Shown here: positions 17,646 through 32,367 of the stretch, piece by piece | Numbering within the stretch: position 1 is the first letter of the stretch | Layout: each line of letters starts with the position of its first letter | NCBI GenBank assembly: GCA_964421015.1 | Contig: CAYQUS010000008.1 | Location: forward strand, 1,932-65,931 | Direction of reading: 5' to 3' | DNA: 64,000 bases | Source of the DNA: an uncultured Planctomycetia bacterium | GTDB lineage: Bacteria > Omnitrophota > Gorgyraeia > Tantalellales > Tantalellaceae | Notes under the pieces: generated by a model | Told to the model about the DNA's origin: nothing | Database searches by the model: none | What the model saw: the letters and a program-made list of their open reading frames with translations, nothing else | Program-made: the position numbers and the translations under genes

Positions 17646-17655
17646 GGAGGGATCT

Positions 17656-17853
17656 ATGATAGAAAGGATCTTACGCGGCGCAGCGGGGTTTTTCGTGCTT
17701 TTGAGCGTGGGTTTAGCTTTTCTGGTAGACATTAAATGGCTCTTTTTCACCGCTTTTGTGGGAATAAACCTTCTGCAGTCCGCTTTTACGAACTGGTGCC
17801 CGATGATGTACCTGCTTGAAAAGGCAGGGGTGGGAGAAAAGGGCTTAAAGTAG
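17656..17853 (+). CDS. DUF2892 (YgaP-like) small 2-TM membrane protein
   Basis: RGAAGFFVLLSVGLAF...FFTAFVGINLLQSAFTNWCPMMYLL matches the DUF2892 pattern. Confidence 0.65.
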   Translation: MIERILRGAAGFFVLLSVGLAFLVDIKWLFFTAFVGINLLQSAFTNWCPMMYLLEKAGVGEKGLK

Positions 17854-17880
17854 AGCCTGTTCTTATTCAGGGCTGTTTAC

Positions 17881-17909
17881 TTGTAAAAAAATCCGTCTCA
17901 CCTTATAAT
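17881..17909 (+). promoter_or_regulatory. sigma70-like promoter (TTGTAA-17-TATAAT) for secreted-protein operon
   Basis: -35 TTGTAA at 17881 and -10 TATAAT at 17904-17909. Confidence 0.45.
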
Positions 17910-17955
17910 GCTTTTTGAAACTGAAAGAGGATGGTTGTTTCTCAACGGGAGTAAA

Positions 17956-18924
17956 ATGGCTAAAAAAGGCCTGCTGATAATCATTGCGATGCTCTTTGCC
18001 TGCCCTTTGTTCGCCGATAATGTGGTTTTCTTCGACGATTTTAATAACAACACCAATAAATGGTTTACCGCTAAAACCAGAGATTATGATCTTGCCGTAG
18101 TTCACGGCTACTATATGATCGATAATAGGCAAGCCAGCCGTGCTCATATGTCGTATCTCAGGCCCTTATTTCTGGATATTACCAAGGATTTTGCCGTGGA
18201 GGTTCGTCTCAGGTCGACAGGCGGTAACAATATGGGTTTTGGCGTTCTTTTCGGTATAGGACAGAATCTCGATCATTACAGGTTTGAGATATCACAAAAC
18301 GGTTTTTTCTGTATAGTCACCCAGCAGGGGAAAGAGCTTGTATATAACAGTCAGTGGACCGCCAGCAGTCTTATTTCCCAGGGAAGCGATTTTAATGTTC
18401 TTAGAATATATAAAAACGGTGGAACAATTGTTTTTTATATTAACGGCGATGCCGTGGCAGTATCCGAGAACATGTTCCTTTTTGGTGACAGGCTAGGTTT
18501 TGTCGCGGAGGCGAACACTCATATCCAGGTGGACTATATAAAAGTTTATCAGGGCTGTCCTTCGTGGGCGCAAACTTTTCCGCCGGTTGAAAGAAAACCG
18601 GCAGGGGCAGAAATTCACAGTGTTTATGTCTCTCCTTCGGAGGTAAAACCAGGTGGCAAATTTACAGTCAACATGGAATATGCCATCAACGATCCAGACA
18701 ATGCCGGCCGTGAACTGGATGTAGAAGTAACCTGCGCGATATACAGGGATGGTAAAGAAGTGTTTTCGGAAAAAGACAATCTTTCGGTTCCCGAGGGGAA
18801 AAGGAATTTTGGAAAGAAAACCGGGCTTAAAGCCGCTAATAAGCCGGGAAGATACGAATTGAAGATCATCTTGTCTTACGCCGGAATAACCGCCGAAAAA
18901 AGCGCAGAACTTGTCATAAAATGA
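17956..18924 (+). CDS. secreted protein: concanavalin-A-like (LamG/DUF1080-type) jelly-roll domain + C-terminal Ig-like/CARDB-like domain
   Basis: Signal peptide MAKKGLLIIIAMLFACPLFA. The FDDFNN...W...Y...G...FEIS..G.F...YINGD...DYIKVY pattern is typical of lectin-fold domains. The ATG at 17956 has a better RBS than the track start at 17908. Confidence 0.5.
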   Translation: MAKKGLLIIIAMLFACPLFADNVVFFDDFNNNTNKWFTAKTRDYDLAVVHGYYMIDNRQASRAHMSYLRPLFLDITKDFAVEVRLRSTGGNNMGFGVLFGIGQNLDHYRFEISQNGFFCIVTQQGKELVYNSQWTASSLISQGSDFNVLRIYKNGGTIVFYINGDAVAVSENMFLFGDRLGFVAEANTHIQVDYIKVYQGCPSWAQTFPPVERKPAGAEIHSVYVSPSEVKPGGKFTVNMEYAINDPDNAGRELDVEVTCAIYRDGKEVFSEKDNLSVPEGKRNFGKKTGLKAANKPGRYELKIILSYAGITAEKSAELVIK

Positions 18925-21740
18925 GAAAAATAACGTGTTTAGCCATAATCTTTGGATTGTTCCTCGCTGAAAACGCTTTCCCGTGGGGTTCTGTCGAGAC
19001 CGGAGGGGGAGCATTCGCCACGCATCAATTTCTGAACAATAAAGCGTATGATATCCTCAAAAAAAAGAAGGCGTTCGCCTTTTCCTCTTTTCCGTCTATT
19101 TCTGATATACAGAGCCATTCCGGAGTAAGCGCTCCCAGTAAAAAAGGACTGGGTCCCGATGACGCCGACAGGTCGGATTATGACTGGCACTGGTATAACC
19201 CTTCGACGAGAGACGGGAAAACTCCTGATAAGGTGAGGGAATACCATTCTGACCTTGTTAAGAATATGGGGGAGATGGGAAATAAAACTCCGAGCGAGAA
19301 ACAAAAAGAAGAAGCCGCCCATAACGCCGCGTACGTGTCCCATTTTATGCAGGATATGACCTGTCCTTTCCATGTTTTTGGGATGTCGGAATCCCGTTTA
19401 AGCGTCGAGGTGATAGGAACCGATGCGGATATGGGGCCTTTTTTCGGGGATATCCTTTCCGATGATTTCTGGCTTTCCGAAATAAAAGATAAAGTACCCG
19501 AGAACGAGTGGCGGAAATATGCCTGGAAGACCCTGGTCGAAAGGCATTTCAGCGATCAGCATCCAGGAACGAATTTTTTTGACGCTACTTACTATGACGG
19601 CACATGGCCCGCTACCACAATGACAAGCAGCCATTTTGAATATGAGGCCGCGGTCGAGGTGAAGTACAAGTTTGATGTTACGGCCAAGGCTAAATTTATA
19701 TACTACGAAAGCCGGTACGGCGAAATTCCGGAGTTCTGGCAGAACGGGATGGACCTTCGGATGCTTACGCATAAAGTGGCGGATAGAACTCGTCAGCGGA
19801 TAGGCACAAAGGAAAATCCCGGGGAGTTGTGGGTAGACATAAGCCGTCTTAAAAGAGACACGGCTGTTCCGTATTATGACTGGTGGCGGGCCATACAGCT
19901 TACCTACGCGCTTTGGAGATCAAGTTTTTCAGCTCTTCATGCGGAAGCCGATGATATAAGGATGTCAAAGGTTCCCAATAAAGAGGACGCTTACAAGGTG
20001 AAAGTGAGGATATGGAACTGGGAAGAGAAAGAACCGGCTCTCAATGTGAAAGTGAATTACGACGTAAAAGGCGGGTCGTCGGGAACCGGTCAGGGTTCGG
20101 TCAAAGGATCGATCAGGGCGCTTGAGTCCAGCGATTGGCTTGACCTTGCAGGCGATGTTATTGTGAAGTCTCCGGCTGATCCGGAAGGAACCATCCGAAT
20201 AACCATAAAAGGACAGTACAACGATAGTTCTATTCCTGACTCCGGGGAAAAGATCGTGGAATATGATCTTAAAGATATATCGTTCGACGCTATCAAGATG
20301 GATGATGTAAGGATGACCAATAAGGATTCGGCGAAAGAATTCCTTGAGAGCTATCCCCGAAACTTTAAGGTTGTTTTTGTGCCTGCAGGAGAGCCGGACA
20401 TTCCAGATAAACACAACTTAGTGGAAAGCCAGAATCCCGCGCCGGGTGCCTGGGTAGCTCCAGGTGAAACCGTAAATCTCATGGTTTACGATGAGTATCT
20501 TGTGGATGTCGCTAATGTTATCGGAAGCGAAAGAGGAGACGCTATAGGAACACTTTCAGATCTGGGCCTTAATCCTTTGCCGGGCGAGATACTGGTCGAA
20601 TATGACGAACCTGAAGGTATTGTAATAGTGCAGGACCCGGCGGAAGGAAGAGTGAGGCCAGGAACCGATATAACCATTCTTGTTGCCAAAAAGAAACCGG
20701 CTCCGCCAGAAGAAGCTCCCGTAGAGTCCGCTGACGATCCGTCGGTGCCGGGAGATGATTATGAACTGCCGCTTACTCCGGTAACCCGATCCGAAGCTCT
20801 TATGGACATACAGATGTCTCCCCAGGCGGTTACGATAAAACTCGGCGAGAGCGCGGCCATCACGGCCGTGCCTATAGATATAGAGGGCAATCCGGTAAGA
20901 GGAAAAGATCTTGCTAGGTTTTCCTATGAGTGGATGGTAAATGATCCGTCTATCGGGAATATATCGGGAAATGGTATTACTGCCACGGTCTCCGGTATAA
21001 AACCCGGAGCGATGCAGGCAATAGTAAAAGCCGGCGGGTCTATGGGGGTGGCTGCTATCCTGATAGAGGAAGGTGATCCTGCTGAAGGGCTGGACGGACA
21101 TTCTCCGGAACATTCCGAACCCCCTTCAAGCGAAGATAACGTTGATTTCAGTTCTGATAATTCAGCCTGGGAAACCGAGCCCGCGCCTTCTCAGGGCGGG
21201 GATGCGGGCGGCGAATCAAATCTTTTTTCGGATTTTTTTGACCCGAATGCCGCCGTCCCTCAGGAGAGGACAAGCGAAACAGATATTAGAAATGAATATA
21301 CAGACCAGGCAAGCGCATATCAGCGCGAGCAGCAGCTGCAGCAGCAGAATCTGCAGAACCAGATGAATATGATGCAGGCAATGAGCCAGATAATGAATAC
21401 CATGAACAATATCAGGAACATGCAGGGCGGGACTAATTCTTCAGGATGGAAACCGCCCGTTGTAAATAATAACACCAGCCATGTTAACAACCCTTACAGC
21501 CAGCAAGGATCTGGTTATAAGCCTCCCGTTACAGGGAATACCGGAGGTGGAGCAACTAAGCCACCGAGCGTGACGCCTTCCACGCCGGGGGTGACTGTCA
21601 GGCCTGGTGTTTCAACTAATCCCAATGCCGTAGTTCTTCTGGGAGAAGTAGCTCCAGAGGTAAAAAATCCCAATCTTACTCCGAGGGGAAATCGCAGGGG
21701 AAGTTCCTCTGGCAGTTTTAGCCTGGATTTCAGCAAATAA
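18921..21740 (+). CDS. large secreted protein: zinc-dependent phospholipase C / S1-P1 nuclease-like N-domain + PASTA-like + Big_2 Ig-like + Q/N-rich and P/T-rich C-terminal tail
   Basis: The start overlaps the upstream stop (ATGA). The mature N-terminus begins with FPWGS...H, the Trp1/His zinc ligands of this fold. VSHFMQDMTCPFH gives the H-x3-D-x5-H spacing seen in B. cereus PLC (SLHYLGDVNQPMH). The ~600-800 region contains Big_2 (SPQAVTIKLGESAAITAVPIDIEGNP...ITATVSGIKPGAMQAIVKAGG). The tail reads QREQQLQQQNLQNQMNMMQAMSQIMNTMNNIRNMQ followed by PPVTGNTGGGATKPPSVTPSTPG. Confidence 0.6.
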   Translation: MRKITCLAIIFGLFLAENAFPWGSVETGGGAFATHQFLNNKAYDILKKKKAFAFSSFPSISDIQSHSGVSAPSKKGLGPDDADRSDYDWHWYNPSTRDGKTPDKVREYHSDLVKNMGEMGNKTPSEKQKEEAAHNAAYVSHFMQDMTCPFHVFGMSESRLSVEVIGTDADMGPFFGDILSDDFWLSEIKDKVPENEWRKYAWKTLVERHFSDQHPGTNFFDATYYDGTWPATTMTSSHFEYEAAVEVKYKFDVTAKAKFIYYESRYGEIPEFWQNGMDLRMLTHKVADRTRQRIGTKENPGELWVDISRLKRDTAVPYYDWWRAIQLTYALWRSSFSALHAEADDIRMSKVPNKEDAYKVKVRIWNWEEKEPALNVKVNYDVKGGSSGTGQGSVKGSIRALESSDWLDLAGDVIVKSPADPEGTIRITIKGQYNDSSIPDSGEKIVEYDLKDISFDAIKMDDVRMTNKDSAKEFLESYPRNFKVVFVPAGEPDIPDKHNLVESQNPAPGAWVAPGETVNLMVYDEYLVDVANVIGSERGDAIGTLSDLGLNPLPGEILVEYDEPEGIVIVQDPAEGRVRPGTDITILVAKKKPAPPEEAPVESADDPSVPGDDYELPLTPVTRSEALMDIQMSPQAVTIKLGESAAITAVPIDIEGNPVRGKDLARFSYEWMVNDPSIGNISGNGITATVSGIKPGAMQAIVKAGGSMGVAAILIEEGDPAEGLDGHSPEHSEPPSSEDNVDFSSDNSAWETEPAPSQGGDAGGESNLFSDFFDPNAAVPQERTSETDIRNEYTDQASAYQREQQLQQQNLQNQMNMMQAMSQIMNTMNNIRNMQGGTNSSGWKPPVVNNNTSHVNNPYSQQGSGYKPPVTGNTGGGATKPPSVTPSTPGVTVRPGVSTNPNAVVLLGEVAPEVKNPNLTPRGNRRGSSSGSFSLDFSK

Positions 21741-21846: not shown

Positions 21847-24462
21847 TTACGCCGACATTAAGAACTTGGTGACGTATTCTATTTCCTGGATGTTGTAAGT
21901 TTCGATAGGCCTGTAACGCAGTATTGTTGTTACTACGTTCTTCAGGGACCTTAAGAAATTTCCGGTGTCGGATGTCCCGAGCTCCACCATGCTTCCGAGG
22001 TAAGATCTTATGTCGGAACCCAGGGGAAGATAGGGGTGCACGAAGTAACAGGCCAGCCGATAGGAGCTGTTTTCCGTTTCCACGTCAATTTTTTCGAGAG
22101 ATCTTATGACGTTCATCCTCACGAGAAAAAGCCTTATGAAACCCGCTTTTTCGCTTTCTTCAAGTTTTTCAAGATCCACATATTCAGAATTAAGGAAACG
22201 CGCTCCCCTGAGCTGAGTGTTTTTCAGGAAAAAATCCTCCATTTTTTCAGGGGAAATATCTATTCCGGAAAGGTCTATACAAGACCTTTCCGCCATGGAA
22301 GGGGAATGGAGCTTTAACGCAAGGTCCTCCAGCGAGGAGTAAGTCTTTATCTTCCCCTTAAGTTTTTCCCTTACCAGTTTTTCGGCGTATTTCAGATCGT
22401 TCCCGGCAAAGAGAGACTCGTGGACGTAATAGTCAATATCGGTTTTCATGAAATCCCGCTCCAGGGCGGATAGTTCTTCTTCCGAGGGAGACACGAAAGC
22501 CTTTACTTCAGGAGGGGAACTGTCCGGATTTGAGTCCATAAAAAGTGAATATTCCCTGTGAAGGTCCATATACCTGAGGGCGTCTATGAAACCGTTAGTG
22601 TTAAGCACTTTTCGGCCTTCCAGAGCCATCCCGTAAGATATTTCGGCGAACATTGCCGACTTTGAGGCGTCCCAATCCGCGGATAGACCGTAAGCTAAAG
22701 CTTCGGCAAAAGCTTTCCGCCCTGCCGTATCATCCTTATTTTCGAAAATGGGAAGAGCCTTGAGACGGAAAGATGTTGCCTTGCCGAAGATGGAGTTATC
22801 GGCGGCCTTTACCAGGATTTCTTTTTGCTCAAGTCTTATGAAAACGGCGGCGGCAGCTCTGCCCATAAAGAAATCAGCTATTTCTTCCGGTGATACCGGA
22901 GAACTTATTCCGGTAGAAGCGGCGTAGATATTTTCAGCGGACTTAAGGTCAAGTACCGTGAATTTATCCTTATCGGGCTTAGCATCGGCAGGGATGACGG
23001 CTCCCTCGGGGATATCGAGGTAGTGTTCCCGGAGTATTTTTTCTGTTGTAGAGACCACGCTCCTGCTTTTAGACTCATAGGAGTTAAGGTCAAAGGCAGC
23101 CTCATCGCTCAAATAACTTATGCGAGGGTCTTCCGGGAAAAACTGAAAACTTTCTTTAACTACCCCGGCAAGGTTCCTGCTTGCTCTTTTTTCATCAGGG
23201 GCATCGGTTTTCTCATGTCCCGAGGCTCTGAATTCCCAATCAAGGAAGTCGGGGTTTTCCGTGGGATGCAGGATCCTGCCTACGCGGTGGAATATTGCTT
23301 CTCTTACTATGCGGTGGCGGTTAACCACATCCAGAATGGCTTCTTGCGATATCTCGCCGTTAGGGAGCTTGCCGTCTATGAGCACTTTTATGAAGTACTG
23401 GTAGTTTATGCAGCAGGCGAGTTGAACGGCTTTTTCAAGTTTTTCAGGAGATCTTGCCAGTTCCGGGAAATAGGTGCGGAAAGCCACGGCCTGCGGGTCT
23501 TTGTTGTTGGGGTAGGAGATCCTTCTTATGAGTTCTTTGAAGTTCTCGTTATTCTGGTAAACATTATGGTCCTGGTGGAAGGCGAAAACGAACCAAAGCA
23601 TCATGGCGTCGTTTATAAGGGAATACCTTCCGGATATGTCGTATGCCGCGTCCTCGCGACGGTCTATCTCGAACTGGCCGGAGGATCTTTCCTTAAAGCC
23701 CAGATGCCCGCCTTTTTTAAAGTTTCCGGTGTGGTCGCGCCATTTAAATTCGTGGCGGGCGAGCCTGTACAGTATTCCCTGGGCCAGGCTTATTACCCTG
23801 CCGTCTTCAGTCAGGAAACATATATCGTTTTTCAAAAGGCGTTTGGCGTTCACAACGAATTCCAGGGGGATCTCAAGTTTCGGTTTCTCCCACCTTTTAT
23901 CCCAGAGGATGCGTGGAAGCGCGAGTTCCCCATCGTCCAGAAAAAATTCGGTGTACACTATGTCTATCGGGAGTTCCTCCGGCACCTGTCCGTTTTCGTT
24001 AAGAGAGGCTTTCTCTATGCATCTTGTAAATATCTCGTCTATCCCGTAGGAGAGCATTTCGGACGCAACAGGGTCGTTTTTTACTTTATCCAAGGCTTCT
24101 TCACGGGTGAGGTAGAGGGACTTTGTGTCTATTCCGAGGCCTTCGGGGAAATCCGGACGGGTTTGATCAAGCACGTTACCGCGGCGCATAAGCGGATCGT
24201 TCATTACCATTTTTAGTTTGGCCGAGCCGCGCATTTCGTCTCGGACATTACCGTCGCCATCAAGGGCAACATCTTCTTCCGTTGAGCTTATACCCCCGGG
24301 GGAGGCAAGGCCGGGAGCCAGGTTTCTGTTGGCATATGATGCGTCGGGAAGCGAAAACGCCAGAAAAAGCGATAGAGACAAAGCTTTGGCTATGGTTTTG
24401 AGAGCGGAACATCCCGATGATAAAGTCATAAAGAGTTTCCTTATTATTCGTCCGAGGGACAC
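21847..24462 (-). CDS. 871-aa secreted hypothetical protein (no recognisable domain)
   Basis: It is the only long ORF here and it has an N-terminal signal-like hydrophobic segment (ALSLSLFLAFSL). It is transcribed divergently from the giant dikinase-like gene. Confidence 0.55.
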   Translation of the reverse strand: MSLGRIIRKLFMTLSSGCSALKTIAKALSLSLFLAFSLPDASYANRNLAPGLASPGGISSTEEDVALDGDGNVRDEMRGSAKLKMVMNDPLMRRGNVLDQTRPDFPEGLGIDTKSLYLTREEALDKVKNDPVASEMLSYGIDEIFTRCIEKASLNENGQVPEELPIDIVYTEFFLDDGELALPRILWDKRWEKPKLEIPLEFVVNAKRLLKNDICFLTEDGRVISLAQGILYRLARHEFKWRDHTGNFKKGGHLGFKERSSGQFEIDRREDAAYDISGRYSLINDAMMLWFVFAFHQDHNVYQNNENFKELIRRISYPNNKDPQAVAFRTYFPELARSPEKLEKAVQLACCINYQYFIKVLIDGKLPNGEISQEAILDVVNRHRIVREAIFHRVGRILHPTENPDFLDWEFRASGHEKTDAPDEKRASRNLAGVVKESFQFFPEDPRISYLSDEAAFDLNSYESKSRSVVSTTEKILREHYLDIPEGAVIPADAKPDKDKFTVLDLKSAENIYAASTGISSPVSPEEIADFFMGRAAAAVFIRLEQKEILVKAADNSIFGKATSFRLKALPIFENKDDTAGRKAFAEALAYGLSADWDASKSAMFAEISYGMALEGRKVLNTNGFIDALRYMDLHREYSLFMDSNPDSSPPEVKAFVSPSEEELSALERDFMKTDIDYYVHESLFAGNDLKYAEKLVREKLKGKIKTYSSLEDLALKLHSPSMAERSCIDLSGIDISPEKMEDFFLKNTQLRGARFLNSEYVDLEKLEESEKAGFIRLFLVRMNVIRSLEKIDVETENSSYRLACYFVHPYLPLGSDIRSYLGSMVELGTSDTGNFLRSLKNVVTTILRYRPIETYNIQEIEYVTKFLMSA

Positions 24463-24661
24463 TTTTCGGGTTAAATCGACCTACGCTTTTTTAAGTTTTT
24501 CCAAGATAGTATACCTGATGTAACTCTTTGTTGCAATAACAAAACAACACAAACATACTAACTTTTTTATTTATAACAAAGTAAGGTTTACCAAAAAAGA
24601 AACACCCAAAGTTTGCTTTTATTGTAGGTATTGTGTAAACTAACTTATGAAGGAGAGTTGT

Positions 24662-27600
24662 ATGTTTCTATTCTTAAGAAAAACATTTATTATGTTTTTT
24701 GCCGTTGTTTTTCTTTCCCATACGGAAGGAAGTGTGCTCTATTCTTTAGAAAATGCTCCAGGGAAAGGGGCCATTTTTGAAGAAAAGTCCGCGGATGATG
24801 AGGGTATAGTGCTGAATGCTCTTACCTTCAGTATTCCCGAGCACCTTGGAATCGTAAACGACAGATGGCAGGGTAGTAGCTCTCCGGTAGTAATTTATGT
24901 GCAGGATGCCCATTGCAATTACGAAGCCCAGCAAAAACTTTCCCAGATAGTAGCGTATGTAAACGAGAAGTACGGTATAGAAACCGTGGACCTGGAGGGG
25001 GGAGCGGGCGGCTATGATCTCTCGGCGCTTACCGATGTTACCGATCCTGTATCTAGAAGGAACATTGCGGACTTTTTTGTGAAAGAAGGTCTTGTTAACG
25101 GCGCGGAGTATTTCGCGGCCAATAATCCGGAAAAGGTTAGGCTTTGGGGCGTTGAGGACCGGGAACTCTATATGGAGAATCTCGGGGTATACAGGGACTC
25201 GCTGGCTTACAGGGAAAAGGCCAAGGGACACATAGCGGAACTGAAAAGGGTTATCGGAAAATTCAAAGAGAAGATGTATTCCCCGGAGCTTCTTCTCGTG
25301 GACGAGAAAAGGGGAGAATTCAGGAAAAATGACGTGGAATTGGCTGAATATATGGCCTTTATTTTCGGCGAAGCCGAAAATAACTCTGTGGACATTTCGG
25401 CCTATCCCAATATCTCGATGCTGAAAAAGATCTCCGACAAGGAAAGCTCGATAGATTTCAGGAAAGCCGATAAGGAAAAGGACCAGCTTGTTGACAGGCT
25501 GAAAAGGGCCCTTTCCAAAAGGTCCATGGAAGAACTTTTGAGGTGGACGATAGACCTCAAGGCGGAAAGGATGTCCCAGGGGGAATACTACAGGCGTCTT
25601 CTTGAGACTGCCCGTAAGGTGAATGTCCCGGTAGAGGATCTCTCGCAGCTTGGGGAATATGTGGAATACATGTCCATGTTCGATTCCGTGGATAAATCCG
25701 CGGCTATGAAGGAGCTTGAGGCTCTTGACGGGGCCGTAAGAGAAAAACTTTACAAAGCTGATGGAGAAAGGGAGCTTGACGAGCTTTCGAGGGATCTGGA
25801 GATACTCGAGGGGATCTTCGATATATCGCTTGTCAAGTCGGAATACAGGTACTATATGGATAACTCCGGGGACTTTGACGTAGCGCGGTACCAGTCTTTC
25901 ATTTCAAAGTACGCTACTCTTTACGGCATGGAAGCCGCGTTCAATAAGGAGATATTCTCCCTGGATGATTACCGCGGAAGAATGATCAGGTTCTTTGAAT
26001 ATTCTTTCAGGCGCGACGACGCTTTTCTTAAGAACCTTTCCGTCAGGCGTTCCGGAGGGGCGTCGCCGGAAGCGGCGATACTCGTTACGGGGGGGTTCCA
26101 CTCAGAAAACCTGTGCGAGCTCTTCAGGAATAACAACATATCCTATGTGTCGGTTATGCCTAATTTCAGAAGCCCGGCGGGTTATGAAAGCCCTTATTTC
26201 GCGCGTCTTGCGGGGGGAGGATCGGTCGTAAGCGTGCTTGAGCCGGCTGTCACGGCGGCATCGGCGATGCAGGTAGCGAGTTTATTTTCGGGGATAGCTA
26301 GAGACGTATGGGGAGACAATGCCGATAAAAGTATACGCGCCGCCGTAAAGGTGATGGAGATGAGGGGAGTCGAGTACCTTAGCGGCATATCTAAAGTAGA
26401 GTATGCGGATGGCAAGTTCACTTTTACGATGAAAAGCGGGGAGGAGGATGAGTGGTCAAGGGAGGAATCGGCGGAACTTAAGGGCGAAACTTTAGGGAGA
26501 TCCTCGGCTACGGATATCGGGGAAGGGGTGTTGCCTTTCAGGTTATATTCCTGGGAAAATAAGGGAGATTCCATATTTTCCGGTGACGTTTCCGCCGGAG
26601 AGATAAAACAACTTGTCCGCGGCGCTTCATCTATACCATTCGTAGTGGTCGGCGAGGAAATCGTGGATCCGGTTTCAGGAAAAACGAGAATTGGATTAAA
26701 GGAAATTCTGTTCGGTAGTCCGGGGATGGCTCACGGTTCAATGCTGGAGATCTATACGGCAGGCAAAGAGGATATTCCCTTTTACATAGGTTTTCTTTAT
26801 CAGGGATCGGTAAAAACAGTCGGAATTCCCGAGGAGTTAAAGTATTTGAATGGTCTAGTGGAAAAGATGTTCAAGGAGGAGGGTCTTGCTGATCCAGGAT
26901 ATGTAATAGCGGAACAGGAGGAGAGGACGCTTCTTTTTGTGGACCCGTTTAGCGGGCAGGCTATGGAATTTAACGCTGAAAACTCAAAAACACATGACGA
27001 CATACTCAAAGAGTTTAGTTCTCAGCTTAAAACAGGCTTAAAGGACTTAAAGAGCGGTAATACGCCGTCCAATAACCTTTGGAACATGCTCGGGTACGAT
27101 CCGGGGTCAGAGAGGCATAGGCAGGTGATCGAAAAACTGGATGATTGGGCGAGACAGTCAGAGAGAGATCAGGAGGAGCTTTCAATAGGGGGGATAATCG
27201 ATTTCTACCACGTATCGACGGGGTTTTCGCATGACGGGGAAAAAGTTGTTACCGTCCAGCTTCCGGTCTTTGAAGGATGGTATGAGATATTTGCAGCCAG
27301 TAACAGAGAATTGTACCGAAAGTTACTCGAATATGCTCAAGGAGCGAGGCTTGTAGAGAAGTTTTATGGAAAAGACAACACAGGGAAAAACACGCTTATA
27401 GATCTCCCGGAAGTGGAAATGATATCTAGTGACAGATTAAAGAGAAGGCATGTCTTCTCTCTGGATGAGAAGGACGTTACGGAAAAGTATAAAGCTACTT
27501 TCGGGAATAAAGCCGCAGGAATAGCGCGGGTAAAGACGCTGCTTAACGAGAAAAAACTTCCAGGGAAAGGAAGTCCAAATGGTTTTGTGATAACTACCGA

Positions 27601-30600
27601 TACGTACCGAGAATGGTTGAGAAACGGTAAAACCTTAACGGAAAGAACCAGAAATGAGATCTTTAGAGCCATAAGAGATCTTCAGTTCCAGAGGAAGATG
27701 ATTGAGGGGAAGAGTGAGGAATTTACCGTTTCCGTCAGAAGCGGAGCAGCTATATCTTTGCCGGGGATGATGGACACCAGTTTGGATGTGAAGATCAGAA
27801 AAATTGGAGAGGGAGAAGATTTTGGAGATGCCTGGGGGACGGTGATAGACGAGATTACAAAAGTTTTTGAGTCATGGGAATCTCCAAGAGCCTTAGAAGA
27901 GAGAAGCAGACGGGGTATATCTGATAGTTTTGGAACGGCAGTTGTTGTTCAGGAGATGGTTCTTGGAGATTTGGTTAAGAGAGACTACACAAGCTCTTTC
28001 ACTGGGGTTATGAAGACCAGGGATATTAAGACCGGAGAGGTTGGCGTTTCTGGAGAATTTCTTGAGAATTCTAAGGGAAAAGATCTTGTTGATGGCAGTA
28101 AAACACCCCGAAATCTTAGGGATTTCACGAAGTGGGATTTCAGTACGGGTGTTAAAAGGAAGATAACCTCTGTTCGTGAATTGGAATTCCGTAAAGATCT
28201 TTATTCTCAACTGGAAAAGTGGGCTACTGTTCTCGAGGAATATTACGGCTATCCCCAGGAGATAGAGTTTACGGTAGAGGACGGTGAACTTTATATACTG
28301 CAGACAAGAAGCGCCAATCTTACGCCGAGAGCAGAATTCACTCTTTTACAGGAACAGTTTCTTGGCGGACTTATTTCCGAAACAGACGCCATGAGAAAGA
28401 TGCCGGCTATACTTTCCGGGATGGCAAAGCCATCGATGAAGACTGAGGAAAAACCTTTAGTTTCCGGGATAGGAACATCTCCGGGGGGAATGTTGGGGAG
28501 GGTGGCATTTAGCAGGGAATCTGCAGAGAGAATGATAGAGGAGGAGAGTCTCAAACCCGAGAAAGAAAAACTTCCGGTTATTTTTGTCGCGGAAACCACG
28601 GATGTGGAAGATGTCGGTACCGTGAAAAAGATAGGGGACAGTGGCGGAGGAGTTGTGACATTGAAGGGAGGGATGACAAGCCACGCGGCGGGATACACTT
28701 ACCGTTGGAATATACCGGGTATAGTAGGAGCGGAGGGATTGTCATTAGAAAACGGTAAGCTTGTTTCAAAAGACGGCAAAACAGTAATAAGTGAAGGAAG
28801 CATCTTGGGGATGGATGGGTCCAATGGGAACGTTTATTACAGGTCTGACCAGGATTATGAGGGCTTGTACGAAGTTACGCAGTCTCCGCTAACTAAGAAA
28901 ATACAAAGTGACCTTGTATCCCTCGGGGATCTTACAGCTCTGGCCTTTGCCCTTTCCGGAATACTTTCAGGCGAAAAGACGGCGGTTGACAGTAGCGACA
29001 GCCTTGAAATTATCGACCATTCGGAATATGAGGATCAAAATGAGATAGCGGCTGTGGGGATAAACGGTTACATAAGTATTTCAAACAGGGACCGATTGGC
29101 GCTGAGCCCGCAGGTAGGAACACCGGCATCCGTGATGCGCCTGGTAGTCGTTAAAAAGGATACCGGTGAATACGCCTTTGTATTGGATTTTGGAGCCGTC
29201 TTCCATAAAGACATAATGCCTGAGAGTACTCATTACGCACATGGAAGCGTCTATTTTGAAGCTGGCGGAGGGAAAAATATATCCATTTTCAGTCCGGTAA
29301 CGGCCGACAGATTCCGCATCGGTAATGAAGATTCGTTCCGGGAGATTCATAAGGCTTTTCTGAAGGCCATTGAATCCGATGAACTTCTTAGCGAAGCTCT
29401 AAAGGGGGCTAACCTGGTTACTTCCATTTCTTCGGAGCTCGGTGGAAAAAAGATAAGGAGTACGGTGGGAGTTACTAAGGCTTCTTCAGGTCTTATCGGA
29501 AAACTTTACACGGATAAAGAAGGGGCTGTTATGGACGAGGACATTGTTACCGGTATTTCCTCCGACGGTAAGACCGTAAACGTGACCTCGTCTGATGGAA
29601 GCGCGTTATATGATGAGAATGGTAACGAGGTAGAAGGTATAACGGTGACGGAAGGAGTTATTGGTGATGAGCAAAAAACAGCGATTAAGGAAAAAATAGT
29701 GGCGTTGAGGCAGAAGAGTTCCGGTCTTGGGAGGATGAAGAGCCAATACGACAGTATTATGTTAAACCTTGAAAGCGTTATGGCTGGAGAATCTTCTGTC
29801 CTTGCGGCGGAGAATATGCCGGAAGGCGTTTTCGCATTGCCCGTGACCGGCACACGACAGATCGTTGTGTCTAAGGCAATATTGGAGGGAATATTGTCAG
29901 GCCGCGAGGCCGCTATTCTTCCAATGTTCCATGAATCCGGGGAGATGATGAAAGACAAAATAGAGAACGAAACGGGAATAGTCGCCCACACTTTCATGAG
30001 AGGGGTAGGGCAGAAAGTAAGGGATGCCATAAAAGATATAGTTAAAAACGGGAAATTTAAGGAAGGAATGAGTACTCAGGACTTTTTCGCGCTGATCAAC
30101 GAAGAACTGGCTGTTACAAGGCAAGGGACGCCGCTTACAGACGCGGAGAAGAAGCTTATGCTTTTCAATCTTAACGGCCGCGAAGAATTGTCTTTAAATG
30201 ATCTTACCGACGAGTACGCGTCTATTTACGGCGGTCTTCAGGACAAGGTTTTCGGCAAAGCGGCCAATGAAAATTTTACGAAAGATTATACGTCAAAAGA
30301 GGAAGCGCGGGCGAGGGCATCCGCCAGAGCGGCCAGGGTGGACGGTATTGTAAAAGCCATGGGACAGGTGGAAATGAAACACAGCCTAGTTAAGGCTGTT
30401 GTCGGGGTTCCTGATAACGGCATGTATGAGGCGGAGGTAACAAGGATGCTGGGACAGGTAAATTCCGATCTGGCGGATCTGGGGTTCGGACTTGTAGAGT
30501 CCACAAGCTACAGCAGGCAAGGCGATAAGAGACAGGTAATACCATACAAGATAGTTCAGAATGATCCGGAACAGACGAGGAAGAATTATGAAGAGGCCGT

Positions 30601-31072
30601 GAAAAAAGCTGACAGGATGCTTCAAGAACAGATGAAAACAGCCGCTAAAAGCGACCTGGGAGGGGATGGCCATATCGTTCTTTTCGCTCCGCATAAGAAT
30701 GCCGGGATTAACCTCGATGAGGGAGAAATAAAGGGAATGGAAGAGCAATACGGGAACCTCACGGTGGTCCCGGACGCTTATACCGATTATGACGCCAAAA
30801 GCGAAAGCTGCCCGGATATCTTTACAAGGGCCGTTCTAGCAAGGCATATAGCTTTCGCGTTTAAAAGCAAGGATCCTCTTGCCGTAATGAACATAATGGA
30901 TTTTCTGAACGGGGTCTCCGGAGAAAAAATATCAGAGGAAGAAATAAAGAACATAAAAGATCTGGCGGCCGTTATAAAGTATCTTTTCAACAACCCTCTC
31001 AAATTAAGTTCGGTCTTCGAGAATCTTGTCCAGATGCAGGAGTCCTATCAAGCCGTCGCAAGGTCTCTGTAA
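24662..31072 (+). CDS. giant (2136 aa) multidomain protein: N-terminal hydrophobic anchor, possible TraB/GumN/Tiki-like domain, PPDK/PEP-synthase-type ATP-grasp nucleotide-binding domain, PEP-utilizer phosphohistidine swivel domain, ~700 aa unknown C-terminal region
   Basis: AGGAG RBS before the ATG at 24662; the track ORF begins at 24647. ATP-grasp motifs at ~aa 930-1250: GKGSPNGFVITTDTY, SVRSGAAISLPGMMDTSLDV, VVVQEMVLGD, SGVMKTRDIKTGE...GEFLENSKGKDLVDGSKTPRNL, EIEFTVEDGELYILQTRSANLT. Swivel domain at ~aa 1290-1440: GIGTSPGGMLGRVAF, VIFVAETTDVEDV, GGMTSHAAGYTYRWNIPGIVGAEG (catalytic His), ISEGSILGMDGSNGNVY. No TIM-barrel PEP-utilizer C-domain is present. The N-terminal region has YVQDAHC and ILVTGGFHS motifs resembling the two His motifs of the TraB/GumN family (weak). 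Confidence 0.75.
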   Translation: MFLFLRKTFIMFFAVVFLSHTEGSVLYSLENAPGKGAIFEEKSADDEGIVLNALTFSIPEHLGIVNDRWQGSSSPVVIYVQDAHCNYEAQQKLSQIVAYVNEKYGIETVDLEGGAGGYDLSALTDVTDPVSRRNIADFFVKEGLVNGAEYFAANNPEKVRLWGVEDRELYMENLGVYRDSLAYREKAKGHIAELKRVIGKFKEKMYSPELLLVDEKRGEFRKNDVELAEYMAFIFGEAENNSVDISAYPNISMLKKISDKESSIDFRKADKEKDQLVDRLKRALSKRSMEELLRWTIDLKAERMSQGEYYRRLLETARKVNVPVEDLSQLGEYVEYMSMFDSVDKSAAMKELEALDGAVREKLYKADGERELDELSRDLEILEGIFDISLVKSEYRYYMDNSGDFDVARYQSFISKYATLYGMEAAFNKEIFSLDDYRGRMIRFFEYSFRRDDAFLKNLSVRRSGGASPEAAILVTGGFHSENLCELFRNNNISYVSVMPNFRSPAGYESPYFARLAGGGSVVSVLEPAVTAASAMQVASLFSGIARDVWGDNADKSIRAAVKVMEMRGVEYLSGISKVEYADGKFTFTMKSGEEDEWSREESAELKGETLGRSSATDIGEGVLPFRLYSWENKGDSIFSGDVSAGEIKQLVRGASSIPFVVVGEEIVDPVSGKTRIGLKEILFGSPGMAHGSMLEIYTAGKEDIPFYIGFLYQGSVKTVGIPEELKYLNGLVEKMFKEEGLADPGYVIAEQEERTLLFVDPFSGQAMEFNAENSKTHDDILKEFSSQLKTGLKDLKSGNTPSNNLWNMLGYDPGSERHRQVIEKLDDWARQSERDQEELSIGGIIDFYHVSTGFSHDGEKVVTVQLPVFEGWYEIFAASNRELYRKLLEYAQGARLVEKFYGKDNTGKNTLIDLPEVEMISSDRLKRRHVFSLDEKDVTEKYKATFGNKAAGIARVKTLLNEKKLPGKGSPNGFVITTDTYREWLRNGKTLTERTRNEIFRAIRDLQFQRKMIEGKSEEFTVSVRSGAAISLPGMMDTSLDVKIRKIGEGEDFGDAWGTVIDEITKVFESWESPRALEERSRRGISDSFGTAVVVQEMVLGDLVKRDYTSSFTGVMKTRDIKTGEVGVSGEFLENSKGKDLVDGSKTPRNLRDFTKWDFSTGVKRKITSVRELEFRKDLYSQLEKWATVLEEYYGYPQEIEFTVEDGELYILQTRSANLTPRAEFTLLQEQFLGGLISETDAMRKMPAILSGMAKPSMKTEEKPLVSGIGTSPGGMLGRVAFSRESAERMIEEESLKPEKEKLPVIFVAETTDVEDVGTVKKIGDSGGGVVTLKGGMTSHAAGYTYRWNIPGIVGAEGLSLENGKLVSKDGKTVISEGSILGMDGSNGNVYYRSDQDYEGLYEVTQSPLTKKIQSDLVSLGDLTALAFALSGILSGEKTAVDSSDSLEIIDHSEYEDQNEIAAVGINGYISISNRDRLALSPQVGTPASVMRLVVVKKDTGEYAFVLDFGAVFHKDIMPESTHYAHGSVYFEAGGGKNISIFSPVTADRFRIGNEDSFREIHKAFLKAIESDELLSEALKGANLVTSISSELGGKKIRSTVGVTKASSGLIGKLYTDKEGAVMDEDIVTGISSDGKTVNVTSSDGSALYDENGNEVEGITVTEGVIGDEQKTAIKEKIVALRQKSSGLGRMKSQYDSIMLNLESVMAGESSVLAAENMPEGVFALPVTGTRQIVVSKAILEGILSGREAAILPMFHESGEMMKDKIENETGIVAHTFMRGVGQKVRDAIKDIVKNGKFKEGMSTQDFFALINEELAVTRQGTPLTDAEKKLMLFNLNGREELSLNDLTDEYASIYGGLQDKVFGKAANENFTKDYTSKEEARARASARAARVDGIVKAMGQVEMKHSLVKAVVGVPDNGMYEAEVTRMLGQVNSDLADLGFGLVESTSYSRQGDKRQVIPYKIVQNDPEQTRKNYEEAVKKADRMLQEQMKTAAKSDLGGDGHIVLFAPHKNAGINLDEGEIKGMEEQYGNLTVVPDAYTDYDAKSESCPDIFTRAVLARHIAFAFKSKDPLAVMNIMDFLNGVSGEKISEEEIKNIKDLAAVIKYLFNNPLKLSSVFENLVQMQESYQAVARSL

Positions 31073-31128
31073 AACAAGCGCCCAAAATACACGTTTCCCG
31101 GAAAAACAGGTTGTGGTATAGTATCCGC

Positions 31129-32367
31129 ATGGAAAAAGCCCCCAAATCATTAAGGCTTCATATAGGCGTTTTCGGAAGGACGAATGTCGGGAAATCCAGT
31201 TTTCTTAACCTTGTGGCCGGGCAGGATGTCGCAATAACCAGCCCTATACCGGGCACGACCACCGACGTCGTGGAGAAGACCATGGAACTTCTGCCGCTCG
31301 GGCCCGTGGTGTTCCTGGATACGGCAGGAATAGACGACGTCTCCGCGCTGGGGGAAAAACGCGTGGAGAAGACGCGCAAGGTTTTTGCCAGGGCCGACAT
31401 AATATGTCTTGTCACCGAAGCCGGGAAATGGGGCGAGTTCGAAGATAAGGTGATAGAGGAGGCCCGGGGAAAGGGCGTTCCCGTGGTAGGAGTTGTCAAC
31501 AGGATAGACGAACATTATCCTGACAGTGAGTTTACGTCGCTTTTGGCCGGGAAGACCTCGGGGCACATAATGGTGTCCAGCATAGACACCGGGAAAAGAG
31601 ACGTTTACCTTAACGCGCTCAAGGAAAAACTGATAGATCTTGTACCGGATGATTTTTTGAAGCCGCCGCCGATACTGGGAGATCTTGTCCCAAGGGGAGG
31701 CCTTGCGGTCCTCGTAGTGCCCATAGACAAGGAAGCCCCTAAAGGCAGGATAATACTTCCGCAGGTCCAGACCATACGCGATTGCCTGGACAACGACATC
31801 ATTTCCATAACTCTTAAAGAAAGCGAGTACCCCGAAGTTTTTCCTTTGCTTAAACGCAAGCCGGACCTTACGGTATGCGACTCTCAGGTGGTAAAAAAAT
31901 TTGTATCGGATACCCCGGACGGAGTTAAGTGCACGACTTTTTCCATACTGTTTTCCAGGTGCAGGGGAGATCTTCTCGAGGCCGTTAACGGAGTGAGAGC
32001 CGTAGACGGTCTAAAACAGGGAGATAAGGTTCTTGTGGCCGAGGCATGCAGCCATCACGCCGTGGAAGACGATATAGGCAGGGTCAAGCTGCCAAGGTGG
32101 CTCAAGGAGTATCTGGGGCATGAAGTTCATATCGATGTATACGCCGGAAGGGACTACCCCGAGAACCTTTCGGAATACAAACTTATAATACATTGCGGCG
32201 GATGCATGATAAATAGAAGAGAGATGCTGCACCGAATTAACGTGGCCAGAAAAGCCATGGTACCCGTTACAAATTACGGCGTCTGCATATCCCACATACA
32301 GGGTGTTCTTGAAAGGGTGCTTTCGCCTTTTCCGGACGCTCTTGGGCTCTACAAGTCCTCAAAATAA
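31129..32367 (+). CDS. hydF: [FeFe]-hydrogenase maturation GTPase HydF homolog
   Basis: G1 motif GRTNVGKSS. The N-terminal half is collinear with Thermotoga HydF (AITSPIPGTTTDVVEKTMELLPLGPVVFLDTAGIDD). The C-terminal cluster motif CSHH-x46-HCGGC matches CxHx(44-53)HCxxC. The track start at 31111 is a TTG; the ATG at 31129 fits the HydF N-terminal length. Confidence 0.85.
   Translation: MEKAPKSLRLHIGVFGRTNVGKSSFLNLVAGQDVAITSPIPGTTTDVVEKTMELLPLGPVVFLDTAGIDDVSALGEKRVEKTRKVFARADIICLVTEAGKWGEFEDKVIEEARGKGVPVVGVVNRIDEHYPDSEFTSLLAGKTSGHIMVSSIDTGKRDVYLNALKEKLIDLVPDDFLKPPPILGDLVPRGGLAVLVVPIDKEAPKGRIILPQVQTIRDCLDNDIISITLKESEYPEVFPLLKRKPDLTVCDSQVVKKFVSDTPDGVKCTTFSILFSRCRGDLLEAVNGVRAVDGLKQGDKVLVAEACSHHAVEDDIGRVKLPRWLKEYLGHEVHIDVYAGRDYPENLSEYKLIIHCGGCMINRREMLHRINVARKAMVPVTNYGVCISHIQGVLERVLSPFPDALGLYKSSK

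Follow-up and report, generated by a model that had tools for sequence, protein, structure and literature searches.

A truncated pyruvate phosphate dikinase cassette in a giant, predicted exported modular protein of an Omnitrophota family

Results

Organisation of the locus

The window, i.e. the whole 64,000-nucleotide stretch of DNA analysed here, contains a giant open reading frame of 2141 aa (24647..31072, + strand), encoding a modular protein of what we term the 'bookend' family, and, divergent from it, an 871-aa ORF with a GTG start (21847..24462, - strand). Both are present as described in a sequence-only reading of the same DNA, and all of the motifs quoted there were recovered in the translation of the giant. 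The public gene calls are slightly shorter, with a 2136-aa giant starting at M6 (nt 24662) and an 860-aa neighbour starting at M12 (nt 24429). At the local base composition, the chance probability of a 2141-codon open frame is ~8e-52. The two genes share an intergenic region of 184 bp (24463..24646, or 24430-24661 by the public start codons) that is indeed AT-rich, with a GC content of 28.8% compared with 48.8% for the window. Of two weak sigma-70-like sites, the minus-strand one (24536-24508) lies within this region and the plus-strand one (24398-24426) falls outside it, neither being above shuffle expectation.

The HydF-type GTPase gene reported to adjoin the giant was found at 31111..32367 (+ strand; PF18133, PF18128 and PF01926), 39 bp 3' of the giant and on the same strand, with no terminator-like site found between the two. 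We treat it as context and do not claim it as part of the feature. An adhesin-like operon, also proposed to lie nearby, finds only loose correspondence in genes for an MMPL transporter, a LolA-like protein, a protein with a weak Laminin_G_3 match and a PASTA-domain protein. No RNA elements or tRNAs were found within the window, the anti-phage defence models of PADLOC gave no match, and tblastn revealed no paralogues of any giant module elsewhere in the window.

The giant contains a dikinase cassette with intact motifs

Pfam places a PPDK_N domain (PF01326, E 1.9e-27) at aa 952-1228 and a PEP-utilizers mobile domain (PF00391, E 3.4e-9) at aa 1310-1379 of the giant. These correspond to a nucleotide-binding ATP-grasp of the pyruvate phosphate dikinase (PPDK) type, spanning aa ~941-1240 (27467..28366, + strand), and a phosphohistidine swivel, spanning aa ~1301-1400 (28547..28846, + strand). 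The ATP-grasp motifs comprise GFVITTD (aa 979-985), LPGMMDTSL (1038-1046), VVVQEMVLGD (1099-1108) and EIEFTVEDGELYILQTRS (1205-1222), while paralogous cassettes have GGKAAG/GGKGAG at the position of GNKAAG (aa 953-958). The swivel histidine is His1346 (nt 28682-28684), located inside GGMTSHAAG (aa 1341-1349). The closest solved relative is Clostridium symbiosum PPDK, which aligns over residues 25-113 and 191-508 (E 1e-45), the alignment stopping exactly at the end of the swivel domain, residue 508. Kept between the two are VSVRSGAxxSxPGMMDT, FxSWxxPRA, GTAVxVQxMVxG and QxxEFTxExGxLYxLQTR, and the giant GGMTSHAAG aligns to GGMTSHAAV of PPDK with the catalytic His matched. Identity to bona fide PPDK is ~35% overall, with every catalytic motif retained. 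A chance match can hence be set aside, as both the profiles and the PPDK alignment reveal an ATP-grasp and a swivel with complete catalytic motifs.

At the level of the whole protein, the TIGR01828 PPDK equivalog model matches only in part (242.9 bits, below its cut-off of 843.45). The rifamycin-inactivating phosphotransferase model NF041857 scores 18.9 bits (cut-off 999), and then on the ATP-grasp portion only, whereas the 534-aa NF004531 / PRK05878 model reaches 206 bits (E 9e-61), below its 456-bit cut-off. The giant thus has the ATP-grasp and the swivel His of a PPDK, and lacks both the PF02896 barrel and a whole-protein score at the level of the family.

Dikinase cassettes occur in 7 of the 120 best matches to the family described below, as two types with two domain orders. 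Three of these (P0034, P0054 and P0086) combine a swivel-then-grasp order with ATP-grasp motifs of the VRSS...ED...FAG type. All six paralogues with a swivel keep its His, and the six that were aligned keep the ATP-grasp motifs, at ~25-30% identity. The cassette is recurrent and under constraint. Alternatively, the PPDK-like segment could be a relic that has lost its activity and plays only a structural, space-filling part in a surface protein. Such a relic would fit with loss of the acceptor barrel, and earlier papers describe large Omnitrophota proteins as mosaics of poorly conserved domains. However, retention of the full catalytic set at ~35% identity to PPDK, and again across paralogous cassettes at ~25-30% identity, is unexpected for a relic, and we consider this explanation very unlikely.

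No PEP/pyruvate barrel follows the swivel

The cassette is flanked by two regions, which we refer to as mid1 (aa 601-940; 26447..27466, + strand) and mid2a (aa 1401-1755; 28847..29911, + strand). No Pfam match to PEP-utilizers_C (PF02896) was obtained for the giant, and none of relevance for aa 1401-1890 even at E<=10. An exhaustive HMMER scan of aa 1401-1890 against 1.84 billion representative proteins yielded six matches, none of which is a PPDK or PEP synthase. Motifs that we take to be the signatures of the PPDK barrel were not seen on reading the translation of the giant, an inspection by eye rather than a formal search. A word-indexed homologue search with aa 1401-2141 returned one 430-aa fragment, 94% identical and from the 90%-identity cluster of the giant itself, and so contributed no new diversity. 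The reported absence of the barrel therefore holds in the Pfam, E<=10 and exhaustive scans alike, and the cassette is a truncated PPDK, with ATP-grasp and swivel intact and no PEP/pyruvate barrel. The giant could instead be an ordinary PPDK or PEP synthase fused to extra domains, with a barrel diverged past recognition. While the size of aa 1401-1755 is close to that of the PPDK barrel (~340 aa), the same scans and the halt of the PDB alignment at PPDK residue 508 make this highly improbable, and a divergent PEP barrel in aa 1401-1890 was rejected.

No acceptor domain or substrate could be identified, and neither aa 601-940 nor aa 1401-1755 has a recognisable fold; the AF2 model is of low confidence over both. 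Mid1 has no Pfam match, and no match was found by jackhmmer among 120 family members. Its last ~90-190 aa are common only to the two closest dikinase-bearing relatives, with alignments beginning at aa 762 (BLAST) or 877 (phmmer) for P0001 and at aa 749 or 851, respectively, for P0027.

Constant modules define an Omnitrophota family

The first ~600 aa of the giant do not represent a region peculiar to this protein, as the sequence-only reading had assumed for the ~900 aa that precede the ATP-grasp, but contain a family-defining N-module (aa ~56-600; 24812..26446, + strand) common to all of the 120 best matches at 36-46% identity. This module has a TIKI/TraB/ChaN/erythromycin-esterase-like alpha/beta core, with a central parallel beta-sheet and flanking helices. 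A helical insert of ~290 aa (aa 172-462) splits this core. The putative catalytic residues are D87 and H89 in YVQDAHC (aa 84-90), E117, and H485 in ILVTGGFHS (aa 478-486). The D87-x-H89 pair, E117 (spacing 28) and H485 are invariant across 47 sequences, as are R183 and R456, so that the 2His/2Glu catalytic set and conserved basic residue of the TIKI superfamily are present in the sequence, with Asp rather than Glu as the first acid. Fold and catalytic motif thus uphold the resemblance to TraB/GumN/Tiki noted earlier. Profile methods gave no corresponding signal: aa 1-640 did not match any Pfam or NCBIfam superfamily profile (Pfam down to E<=10), and a PDB profile search with the family alignment found no TIKI superfamily member, only low-complexity or coiled-coil noise.

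At the opposite end, a C-module (aa ~1891-2141; 30317..31069, + strand) consists of an alpha/beta domain of Rossmann/vWA-like type and a helical tail, the last residues being ...QAVARSL-COOH. It occupies the extreme C-terminus in 94 of the 120 best family matches, regardless of the insert. A role as autotransporter was considered and dropped, the module being alpha/beta with no beta-barrel. Immediately upstream lies a 'pre-C' subdomain (aa ~1756-1890; 29912..30316, + strand) with the motifs FHESGE (1761-1766) and AHTFMRGVG (1780-1788), which on the basis of its sequence resembles a small HExx[E/H] metallopeptidase. Residues 1756-1882 recur in 17 of the 120 best matches, mostly immediately upstream of the C-module, and 39 of 94 matches have an HExx[EH] motif in the 330 aa that precede the C-module, where ~17% would be expected.

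Sequence comparison gives a family layout of a predicted Sec-type signal peptide, a ~550-aa TIKI-like N-module, a variable enzymatic insert and a ~250-aa C-module ending in [S/A]-L; the giant has each of the constant elements, ending in ...AVARSL. As complete two-module proteins span 908 to 3560 aa, the insert is optional as well as variable. Inserts include GT2, M48 with ABC1, methyltransferase, metallophosphatase, HATPase_c, Ser/Thr kinase, PP2C, cNMP-binding, FHA and helicase domains. A scan of GTDB representative genomes, which do not include the genome of the window, gave 453 confirmed matches. All 77 retained loci lie in Omnitrophota MAGs or in MAGs labelled 'uncultured Planctomycetia', and the family is apparently restricted to Omnitrophota; several loci occur per genome, sometimes in tandem. 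We found no conserved neighbour (secretion, partner or immunity gene) around these 77 loci, the best neighbour family occurring at 12 and most being housekeeping. The family also departs from polymorphic toxins and effectors, as its variability lies inside the protein and its C-terminus stays constant. Neither constant module is matched by a Pfam or NCBIfam model, and a literature search on these modules (Omnitrophota with Tiki or dikinase) found only domain counts. West-Roberts et al. (2023, bioRxiv 10.1101/2023.11.21.568195) rank PPDK_N as one of the 20 commonest domains of giant Omnitrophota proteins, hence its presence on such proteins is not new in itself.

The C-terminal end recurs with other inserts, and the divergent neighbour is an orphan

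The divergent pair had been read as a dedicated new dikinase, with a ~700-aa C-terminal substrate domain, forming a two-gene system with the 871-aa secreted protein. The intact ATP-grasp and swivel and the missing barrel are consistent with such a system, and aa 1401-1755 could bind a substrate. However, family members with unrelated inserts also contain the final ~385 aa of the giant, which are therefore not a dikinase substrate domain: the C-module is found with kinase, glycosyltransferase, peptidase and other inserts, and 16 of the 17 matches that contain aa 1756-1882 are without a dikinase cassette, P0054 alone having one.

The N-terminus of the 871-aa neighbour (MTLSSGCSALKTIAKALSLSLFLAFSLPDASYA-N) resembles a signal peptide. 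No Pfam, NCBIfam or PADLOC model matches the protein, and comparisons with the giant, with 120 family members and with the 1503-aa modular protein of the window revealed no similarity. Among 5.8 billion proteins only two homologues exist, namely the protein itself and one that is 62% identical. The divergent arrangement recurs on the 6-kb contig of this one close relative, the only other contig with an 871-aa homologue; the closest dikinase-bearing relatives, P0001 and P0027, are without an 871-aa-type neighbour. One relative at 62% identity is too few to tell a functional link from mere synteny. The 871-aa protein is best described from its sequence as a probably secreted orphan whose fold is not recognised, and its tie to the giant may be positional only. 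We regard the two-gene reading as unlikely.

Predicted export of the giant

A signal-like segment is present at the N-terminus of the giant (aa 1-28; 24647..24730, + strand; hydropathy segment aa 4-25), in line with the signal peptide or hydrophobic anchor proposed earlier. It consists of a charged n-region (RK), a hydrophobic core (TFIMFFAVVFL) and then SHTEG-S, a layout shared by the fragment from a close relative. Of the 120 best family matches, 99 have a hydrophobic segment that begins no later than residue 70, in many cases with AxA after it (e.g. AWA-A), and 65 of the 120 have no further hydrophobic segment. Signal-peptide and topology calls are simple heuristics on sequence, from which we infer that the giant and its family are exported via a Sec-type signal peptide. 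In the giant, a weakly hydrophobic stretch at aa 1423-1441, within mid2a, could alter the topology.

Export of an ATP-dependent enzyme is paradoxical and counts against this reading, as does the lack of conserved secretion or delivery genes beside the 77 family loci. An alternative is that the family is membrane-anchored, the N-terminal helix being an anchor and not a cleaved signal, and faces its own cytoplasm, with functions in phospho-signalling or regulation, the cassette acting as a phosphotransfer or ATP/AMP-sensing module. The inserts are mainly cofactor-dependent or signalling domains that are normally cytoplasmic, and an extracellular location for such domains in Omnitrophota giants has been judged implausible in earlier work. 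Against this, the N-termini, with a positive n-region, short h-region and AxA-type c-region, are typical of cleaved Sec signals, and the 65 matches without a second hydrophobic segment have none to return the body of the protein inside. We consider the cytoplasmic location rather unlikely.

Discussion

Omnitrophota are abundant, uncultured and largely host-dependent nanobacteria, and their many huge proteins are essentially uninterpreted. The architecture of the giant, its intact catalytic motifs, the absence of a barrel and the family context are established. The giant is probably an exported modular protein of an Omnitrophota family that carries a barrel-less PPDK insert between constant end modules. 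Judging from its motifs, it most likely autophosphorylates on His1346 and would pass the phosphate to a non-pyruvate acceptor outside the cytoplasm of the producer. The cassette would first bind ATP and phosphorylate His1346, as in PPDK, PEP synthase, rifampin phosphotransferase (RPH) and glucan-water dikinase (GWD), with the swivel subsequently handing the phosphate to an acceptor that may be held by the flanking regions (aa ~760-940 or 1401-1755) or else be an external protein or small molecule. The signal peptide would take the protein out of the producer cytoplasm, in which case ATP would be available only inside a host or prey cell, or via some other route. Hydrolase activity, directed at the protein itself or at a target, could reside in the TIKI-like N-module and perhaps also in the HExxE subdomain.

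More speculatively, the N- and C-modules might constitute an export, autoprocessing or delivery chassis by which host-dependent Omnitrophota bring interchangeable, mostly phosphotransfer-type cargo such as kinases, phosphatases and dikinase cassettes into or onto host or prey. In that case the giant would be delivered as a barrel-less dikinase and would use the ATP of its victim to phosphorylate a host molecule, or drain it to AMP, following release after export by the TIKI-like protease or HExxE domain. We advance this only tentatively. If true, it would amount to a new kind of inter-cellular delivery scaffold, while a cytoplasmic location would imply a new lineage-specific signalling scaffold.

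A compact and repeatable layout with two constant modules, neither covered by Pfam or NCBIfam, organises hundreds of Omnitrophota proteins and makes of the 'mosaic giants' a family whose parts can be tested. In enzymological terms, exported barrel-less cassettes of the PPDK and PEP synthase types would extend the small set of His-swivel phosphotransferases that serve acceptors other than pyruvate, and raise the question of the ATP source for an exported ATP-dependent enzyme.

Comparison with known systems

The Archaeovorins (West-Roberts et al. 2023) belong to the same phylum and are likewise enzymatic mosaics with signal peptides, but are far larger, with a dockerin class of at least 30,000 aa, a V. 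archaeovorus giant of 39,678 aa and many TM helices; the portions of these papers available contain no description of the constant N- and C-modules. Compared with the TIKI superfamily (Tiki, TraB/PrgY, ChaN, GumN, erythromycin esterases, RRSP and HopBA1), whose Pfam models do not detect it, the N-module differs in its first acidic residue and in the helical insert within the core, and it forms the N-terminal part of very large modular proteins. MARTX toxins provide an architectural analogy only: constant ends bracket variable enzymatic domains, at least one hydrolase domain in the giant could process the protein, and RRSP is a MARTX effector with a TIKI fold. There is no sequence or repeat similarity to MARTX, the constant ends of the giant being globular rather than glycine-rich repeats, and no type I secretion genes lie near family loci.

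Short 'PPDK' proteins of the NF004531 / PRK05878 type likewise consist of ATP-grasp and swivel with no barrel, but appear small and stand-alone, judged by the 534-aa model length. To our knowledge, these are also uncharacterised. Of PPDK, PEP synthase and RPH, the first is the closest to the cassette. It shares with the Clostridium symbiosum enzyme (PDB 1kbl/1dik) the ATP-grasp-then-swivel order, the nucleotide-site motifs and GGMTSHAA, but is missing the TIM barrel and is set within a 2141-aa, predicted exported protein, flanked by unrelated modules. RPH and GWD had been named as the only characterised enzymes with such a cassette and a different acceptor; the list is incomplete, as HpeHI, the PigC/HapC type and others exist (PMC4844700, PMC13553574, PMC12167813, PMC13534948). 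The giant has no sequence similarity to the acceptor domains of these enzymes, and its swivel directly follows the ATP-grasp, whereas RPH has the order ATP-grasp, rifampin-binding domain and C-terminal swivel. What the giant shares with all of them is the logic of an ATP-grasp coupled to a phosphate-carrying His swivel, and the swivel-then-grasp order of GWD is matched by its paralogues P0034, P0054 and P0086.

A PPDK-type cassette without a barrel

The giant is encoded by 2141 codons at window 24647-31072 (+), publicly called as 2136 aa from M6; a frame of this length would stay open by chance with a probability of about 8e-52. Every motif quoted for it in the sequence-only reading was found (aa 84-90, 478-486, 979-985, 1038-1046, 1099-1108, 1205-1222 and 1341-1349), and the ATP-grasp and phosphohistidine swivel proposed there are real and intact. 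In Pfam, aa 952-1228 match PPDK_N (E 1.9e-27) and aa 1310-1379 match the mobile swivel domain (E 3.4e-9). Among solved structures, the top match is the pyruvate phosphate dikinase (PPDK) of Clostridium symbiosum (residues 25-113 and 191-508, E 1e-45). Residue alignment with this enzyme reveals that the giant retains VSVRSGAxxSxPGMMDT, FxSWxxPRA, GTAVxVQxMVxG and QxxEFTxExGxLYxLQTR, as well as GGMTSHAA, in which the phospho-carrier His corresponds to position 1346. Just upstream of the PPDK alignment, GNKAAG (aa 953-958) aligns with the GGKAAG/GGKGAG of cassette-bearing paralogues. The NCBIfam PPDK equivalog gave a partial match (243 bits against a cut-off of 843), and the models of PEP synthase (PEPS), PigC/RedH and rifampin phosphotransferase (RPH) scored far lower.

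The reported absence of the PEP/pyruvate-binding barrel was likewise borne out: PEP-utilizers_C has no Pfam match in the giant, and the structural-database alignment to PPDK stops exactly where the swivel domain stops. A barrel hidden after the swivel was rejected, as Pfam found nothing relevant in aa 1401-1890 at E<=10, and an exhaustive HMMER scan of this segment against 1.84 billion representative proteins returned six matches, with no PPDK or PEP synthase among them.

A family with constant ends and variable inserts

Searching 5.8 billion proteins with the whole giant gave at least 468 matches, and every match with a named organism belongs to Candidatus Omnitrophota; the 120 best were analysed. 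These are 1200-3700 aa long, each aligning over about a quarter of the giant. An N-module (aa ~56-600 of the giant, 36-46% identity) is always N-terminal in the match, and a C-module (aa ~1897-2141, 25-40% identity) always lies at the extreme C-terminus. Neither is matched by a Pfam or NCBIfam model. With an iterated profile, the C-module was located in 94 of the 120, in all cases at the very end, with the final residues in register and an [S/A]-L ending in 80 of the 94. The family consensus is LrIrpIDfeeI.dwq.aQeAVatSL, the giant itself ending ...QESYQAVARSL. The fixed [S/A]-L end suggests that the free C-terminus may be recognised by, for example, a protease, a sorting factor or the family's own N-module. 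The stop codon has a fixed position across the family, the conserved ...QEAVAxSL tail falling at aa 2114-2141 of the giant (window 30986-31069). The giant did not match itself in this search; the representative of its 90% cluster is P0123, a fragment of 430 aa that scored below the 120 listed matches, and a fragment serving as cluster representative can hide self-matches.

Between these ends, precomputed Pfam annotation of the 120 best matches shows inserts that differ from protein to protein. They include glycosyltransferase 2, M48 peptidase with ABC1 kinase, M50 peptidase, methyltransferases, metallophosphatases, HATPase_c, Ser/Thr kinases, PP2C (SpoIIE), low-molecular-weight phosphatase, cNMP-binding, FHA, HD, TPR and HEAT domains, helicases, an amidase, and PPDK_N with swivel. 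Two exact N-module peptide patterns were run against a species-representative genome set, giving 453 confirmed places, from which 77 loci were retained. All 77 lie in metagenome-assembled genomes (MAGs) of Omnitrophota or in MAGs labelled 'uncultured Planctomycetia'. Complete two-module proteins in these loci measure between 908 and 3560 aa, and the smallest of them are barely more than N-module plus C-module. Genomes carry several members, two or three copies occurring within 8 of the loci, and P0001, the closest dikinase-bearing relative among the best 120, is preceded by another member in tandem. We regard these as a lineage-specific family of modular proteins, predicted to be exported, that appears not to have been described before.

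Many of the carrier MAGs (L002, L004, L006, L008, L010 and others) were deposited as 'uncultured Planctomycetia bacterium' in TPA binchicken assemblies. The N-module proteins of these MAGs are no more distant from the giant than those from named Omnitrophota; the labels are probably taxonomic placeholders rather than evidence of the family in Planctomycetia.

Dikinase modules occur in 7 of the 120 best matches, in two forms. The giant, P0001 and P0027 have the PPDK-type cassette, ATP-grasp followed by swivel. P0034, P0054 and P0086 carry PEPS/RPH-type motifs (VRSS...ED...FAG) with the swivel first, the order also found in glucan-water dikinase (GWD). P0072 has a PPDK-type ATP-grasp only, and P0111 shows weaker matches in grasp-then-swivel order. 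The two kinds, with different ATP-grasp motifs and opposite domain orders, imply at least two independent captures of dikinase modules. All six swivel-bearing paralogues keep the swivel His, and the ATP-grasp motifs persist in each of the six that were aligned; retention at a mutual identity of only ~25-30% argues for selection on catalysis, not decay. On its sequence, the giant is best described as carrying a barrel-less, PPDK-derived, putative His-swivel phosphotransfer cassette as one interchangeable insert among many.

The N-module resembles the TIKI superfamily

Six of the seven best matches to the predicted N-module fold are members of the TIKI superfamily. Matches comprise ChaN (8.6), two erythromycin-esterase-like proteins (8.4), the type III effector HopBA1 (8.4), EreC (7.8), a TraB-family protein (7.4) and, at rank 37, the MARTX effector RRSP (6.1). 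The defining features of this superfamily are a core of parallel beta-sheet and a 2His/2Glu catalytic set, accompanied by a conserved basic residue (PMC6254334). RRSP has E3900, H3902, E3930 and H4030 as its set, and Bcr135 has the pair H85 and E113 (PMC6254334). In the N-module, D87-x-H89, E117 and H485 (within GGFH) are invariant across 47 sequences, as are R183 and R456, and the H89-E117 spacing of 28 residues is the same as in Bcr135 and RRSP. A helical insert of ~290 aa (aa 172-462) divides the core. TIKI-superfamily sequence profiles do not detect the N-module. The proposed TraB/GumN/Tiki resemblance of the giant's N-terminus is therefore supported by fold matches and by the invariant 2His/2-acid pattern with its matching spacing, not by sequence profile.

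The region between swivel and C-terminus

What had been read as a new substrate domain of ~700 aa following the swivel was not sustained, as aa ~1756-1882 and the C-module are common to relatives without the cassette. The former is a subdomain with FHESGE...AHTFMRGVG, found in 17 of the 120 best matches, only one of which has a dikinase cassette. It usually lies just upstream of the C-module (aa 1756-1890 in the giant, window 29912-30316). Relatives such as P0036, P0043 and P0029 show HE[LS]GE or HExxH and then a downstream (R)HTxxRGxG, with HELGE, HELIH or HEMIH at the positions equivalent to the giant's HESGE. HExx[E/H] occurs within 330 aa upstream of the C-module in 39 of 94 matches, against ~17% expected. 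By these motifs, the subdomain may be a small, minimal metallopeptidase-like unit. The few distant matches to aa 1608-1890 also belong to the family and reach lengths of up to 6125 aa. The segments confined to the giant and its nearest relatives are aa 601-940 and aa 1401-1755; of the first, the final ~90-190 residues, which precede the ATP-grasp, are common to the giant, P0001 and P0027. These two segments are the only candidates for an acceptor-binding region.

The divergent neighbour and other genes in the window

The neighbouring ORF (window 21847-24462, -) has 871 codons, with a public call of 860 aa from M12, and is recorded as HPN72402.1 from a 'Candidatus Omnitrophota bacterium' MAG. 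Both ORFs of the pair thus exist as described, and the 184-bp spacer is indeed AT-rich (28.8% GC vs 48.8% for the window), with promoter-like matches no more frequent than in shuffled sequence. The neighbour has a convincing predicted signal peptide (...SLPDASYA|N), no recognisable domain, and no similarity to the giant or the 120 best members of its family. Its homologues among 5.8 billion proteins number exactly two: itself, and a protein of 62% identity encoded on a contig of 6.2 kb. The gene fragment lying divergently upstream on that contig starts with a signal peptide and the N-module motif ...LNVLTFNL. P0001 and P0027 have no neighbour of this type. The pairing is conserved only across a distance that plain synteny explains, and the suggestion of a functional two-gene system is unsupported.

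Several secreted, domain-less Omnitrophota proteins share a short similar motif right after the signal peptide (NRNLAPGLASPGG, NRSNLSAPLSTEP, GLAPLAASQNPLVK, LGIFPASHNPPVK), at window 24300-24429 (the neighbour's N-terminus), window 40464-40620, and in the loci L079:15109-17124 and L080:17416-20028. BLAST found no wider similarity between these proteins, and the motif may have a common role in processing or sorting, or may be due to chance.

Downstream of the giant, after a gap of 39 bp that contains no terminator-like site, comes a complete gene for a HydF-type GTPase of [FeFe]-hydrogenase maturation (window 31111-32367, +). The window ORFs that were scanned include no recognised HydE, HydG or hydrogenase; a radical-SAM protein with a B12-binding domain lies nearby (window 35773-37134). 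A large modular protein of 1503 aa (window 40464-44975, +) has a signal-peptide-like N-terminus and ~800 aa without a domain, followed by chorismatase FkbO-like N, RidA/L-PSP and SAM methyltransferase domains; it contains neither the giant's N-module nor its C-module. The adjoining operon of large secreted adhesin-like proteins corresponds to an upstream gene run on the same strand (window 13029-21740, +), which looks more like envelope or lipoprotein-export functions than like clear adhesins. The run comprises an MMPL/RND-type transporter, a LolA-like protein, a 434-aa protein without assigned function, a protein with a weak Laminin_G_3 match and a PASTA-domain protein of 939 aa. Further envelope-related genes are an AsmA-family protein of 1108 aa (window 53049-56375, -) and a transglutaminase fused to a 7-TM domain (window 10148-11713, +).

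Localisation and possible mechanism

The signal-like segment noted at the giant's N-terminus holds up, with a positively charged n-region, a short hydrophobic core (TFIMFFAVVFL) and then SHTEG|S. In 99 of the 120 relatives, a hydrophobic segment begins among the first 70 residues, in many cases with AxA after it (AWA|A), and 65 of the 120 have no other; the giant has one further weak segment (aa 1423-1441). By these heuristics the family is predicted to be exported, which is odd for ATP-, SAM- and nucleotide-dependent enzymes, a puzzle that others have already raised for Omnitrophota giants. On one of two readings, the enzymes would act inside a host or prey cell, where ATP exists. Such a site of action agrees with the dependence on hosts described for the phylum (PMC10066038), as well as with the repeated occurrence of TIKI folds among delivered toxins (RRSP, HopBA1). 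Alternatively, the topology prediction is wrong, and family members would be regulatory proteins facing the cytoplasm. In the 77 loci, no secretion or partner gene is conserved beside the family members, so genomic context does not decide between the readings.

By analogy with the established chemistry of PPDK, PEPS, RPH and GWD, the cassette would autophosphorylate His1346 in an ATP-dependent manner, and the swivel would move the phosphate to a second site. More speculatively, the acceptor might lie at aa ~760-940 or 1401-1755, or be an external target; the cassette might run futile ATP-to-AMP turnover. The giant might be exported to act in another cell, and TIKI-like or HExxE domains might carry out processing. 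That it represents a genuinely new effector-delivery chassis we consider rather unlikely.

By itself the dikinase is moderately curious; the architecture of the family and the paradox of exported ATP enzymes make the locus worth pursuing. In the accessible literature on large Omnitrophota proteins there is no description of the barrel's absence, of the complete catalytic set, of two types of cassette or of the constant-ends architecture. PPDK-like domains on big Omnitrophota proteins are already known and not new, since West-Roberts et al. (bioRxiv 10.1101/2023.11.21.568195) count PPDK_N among the 20 most frequent domains of giant Omnitrophota proteins.
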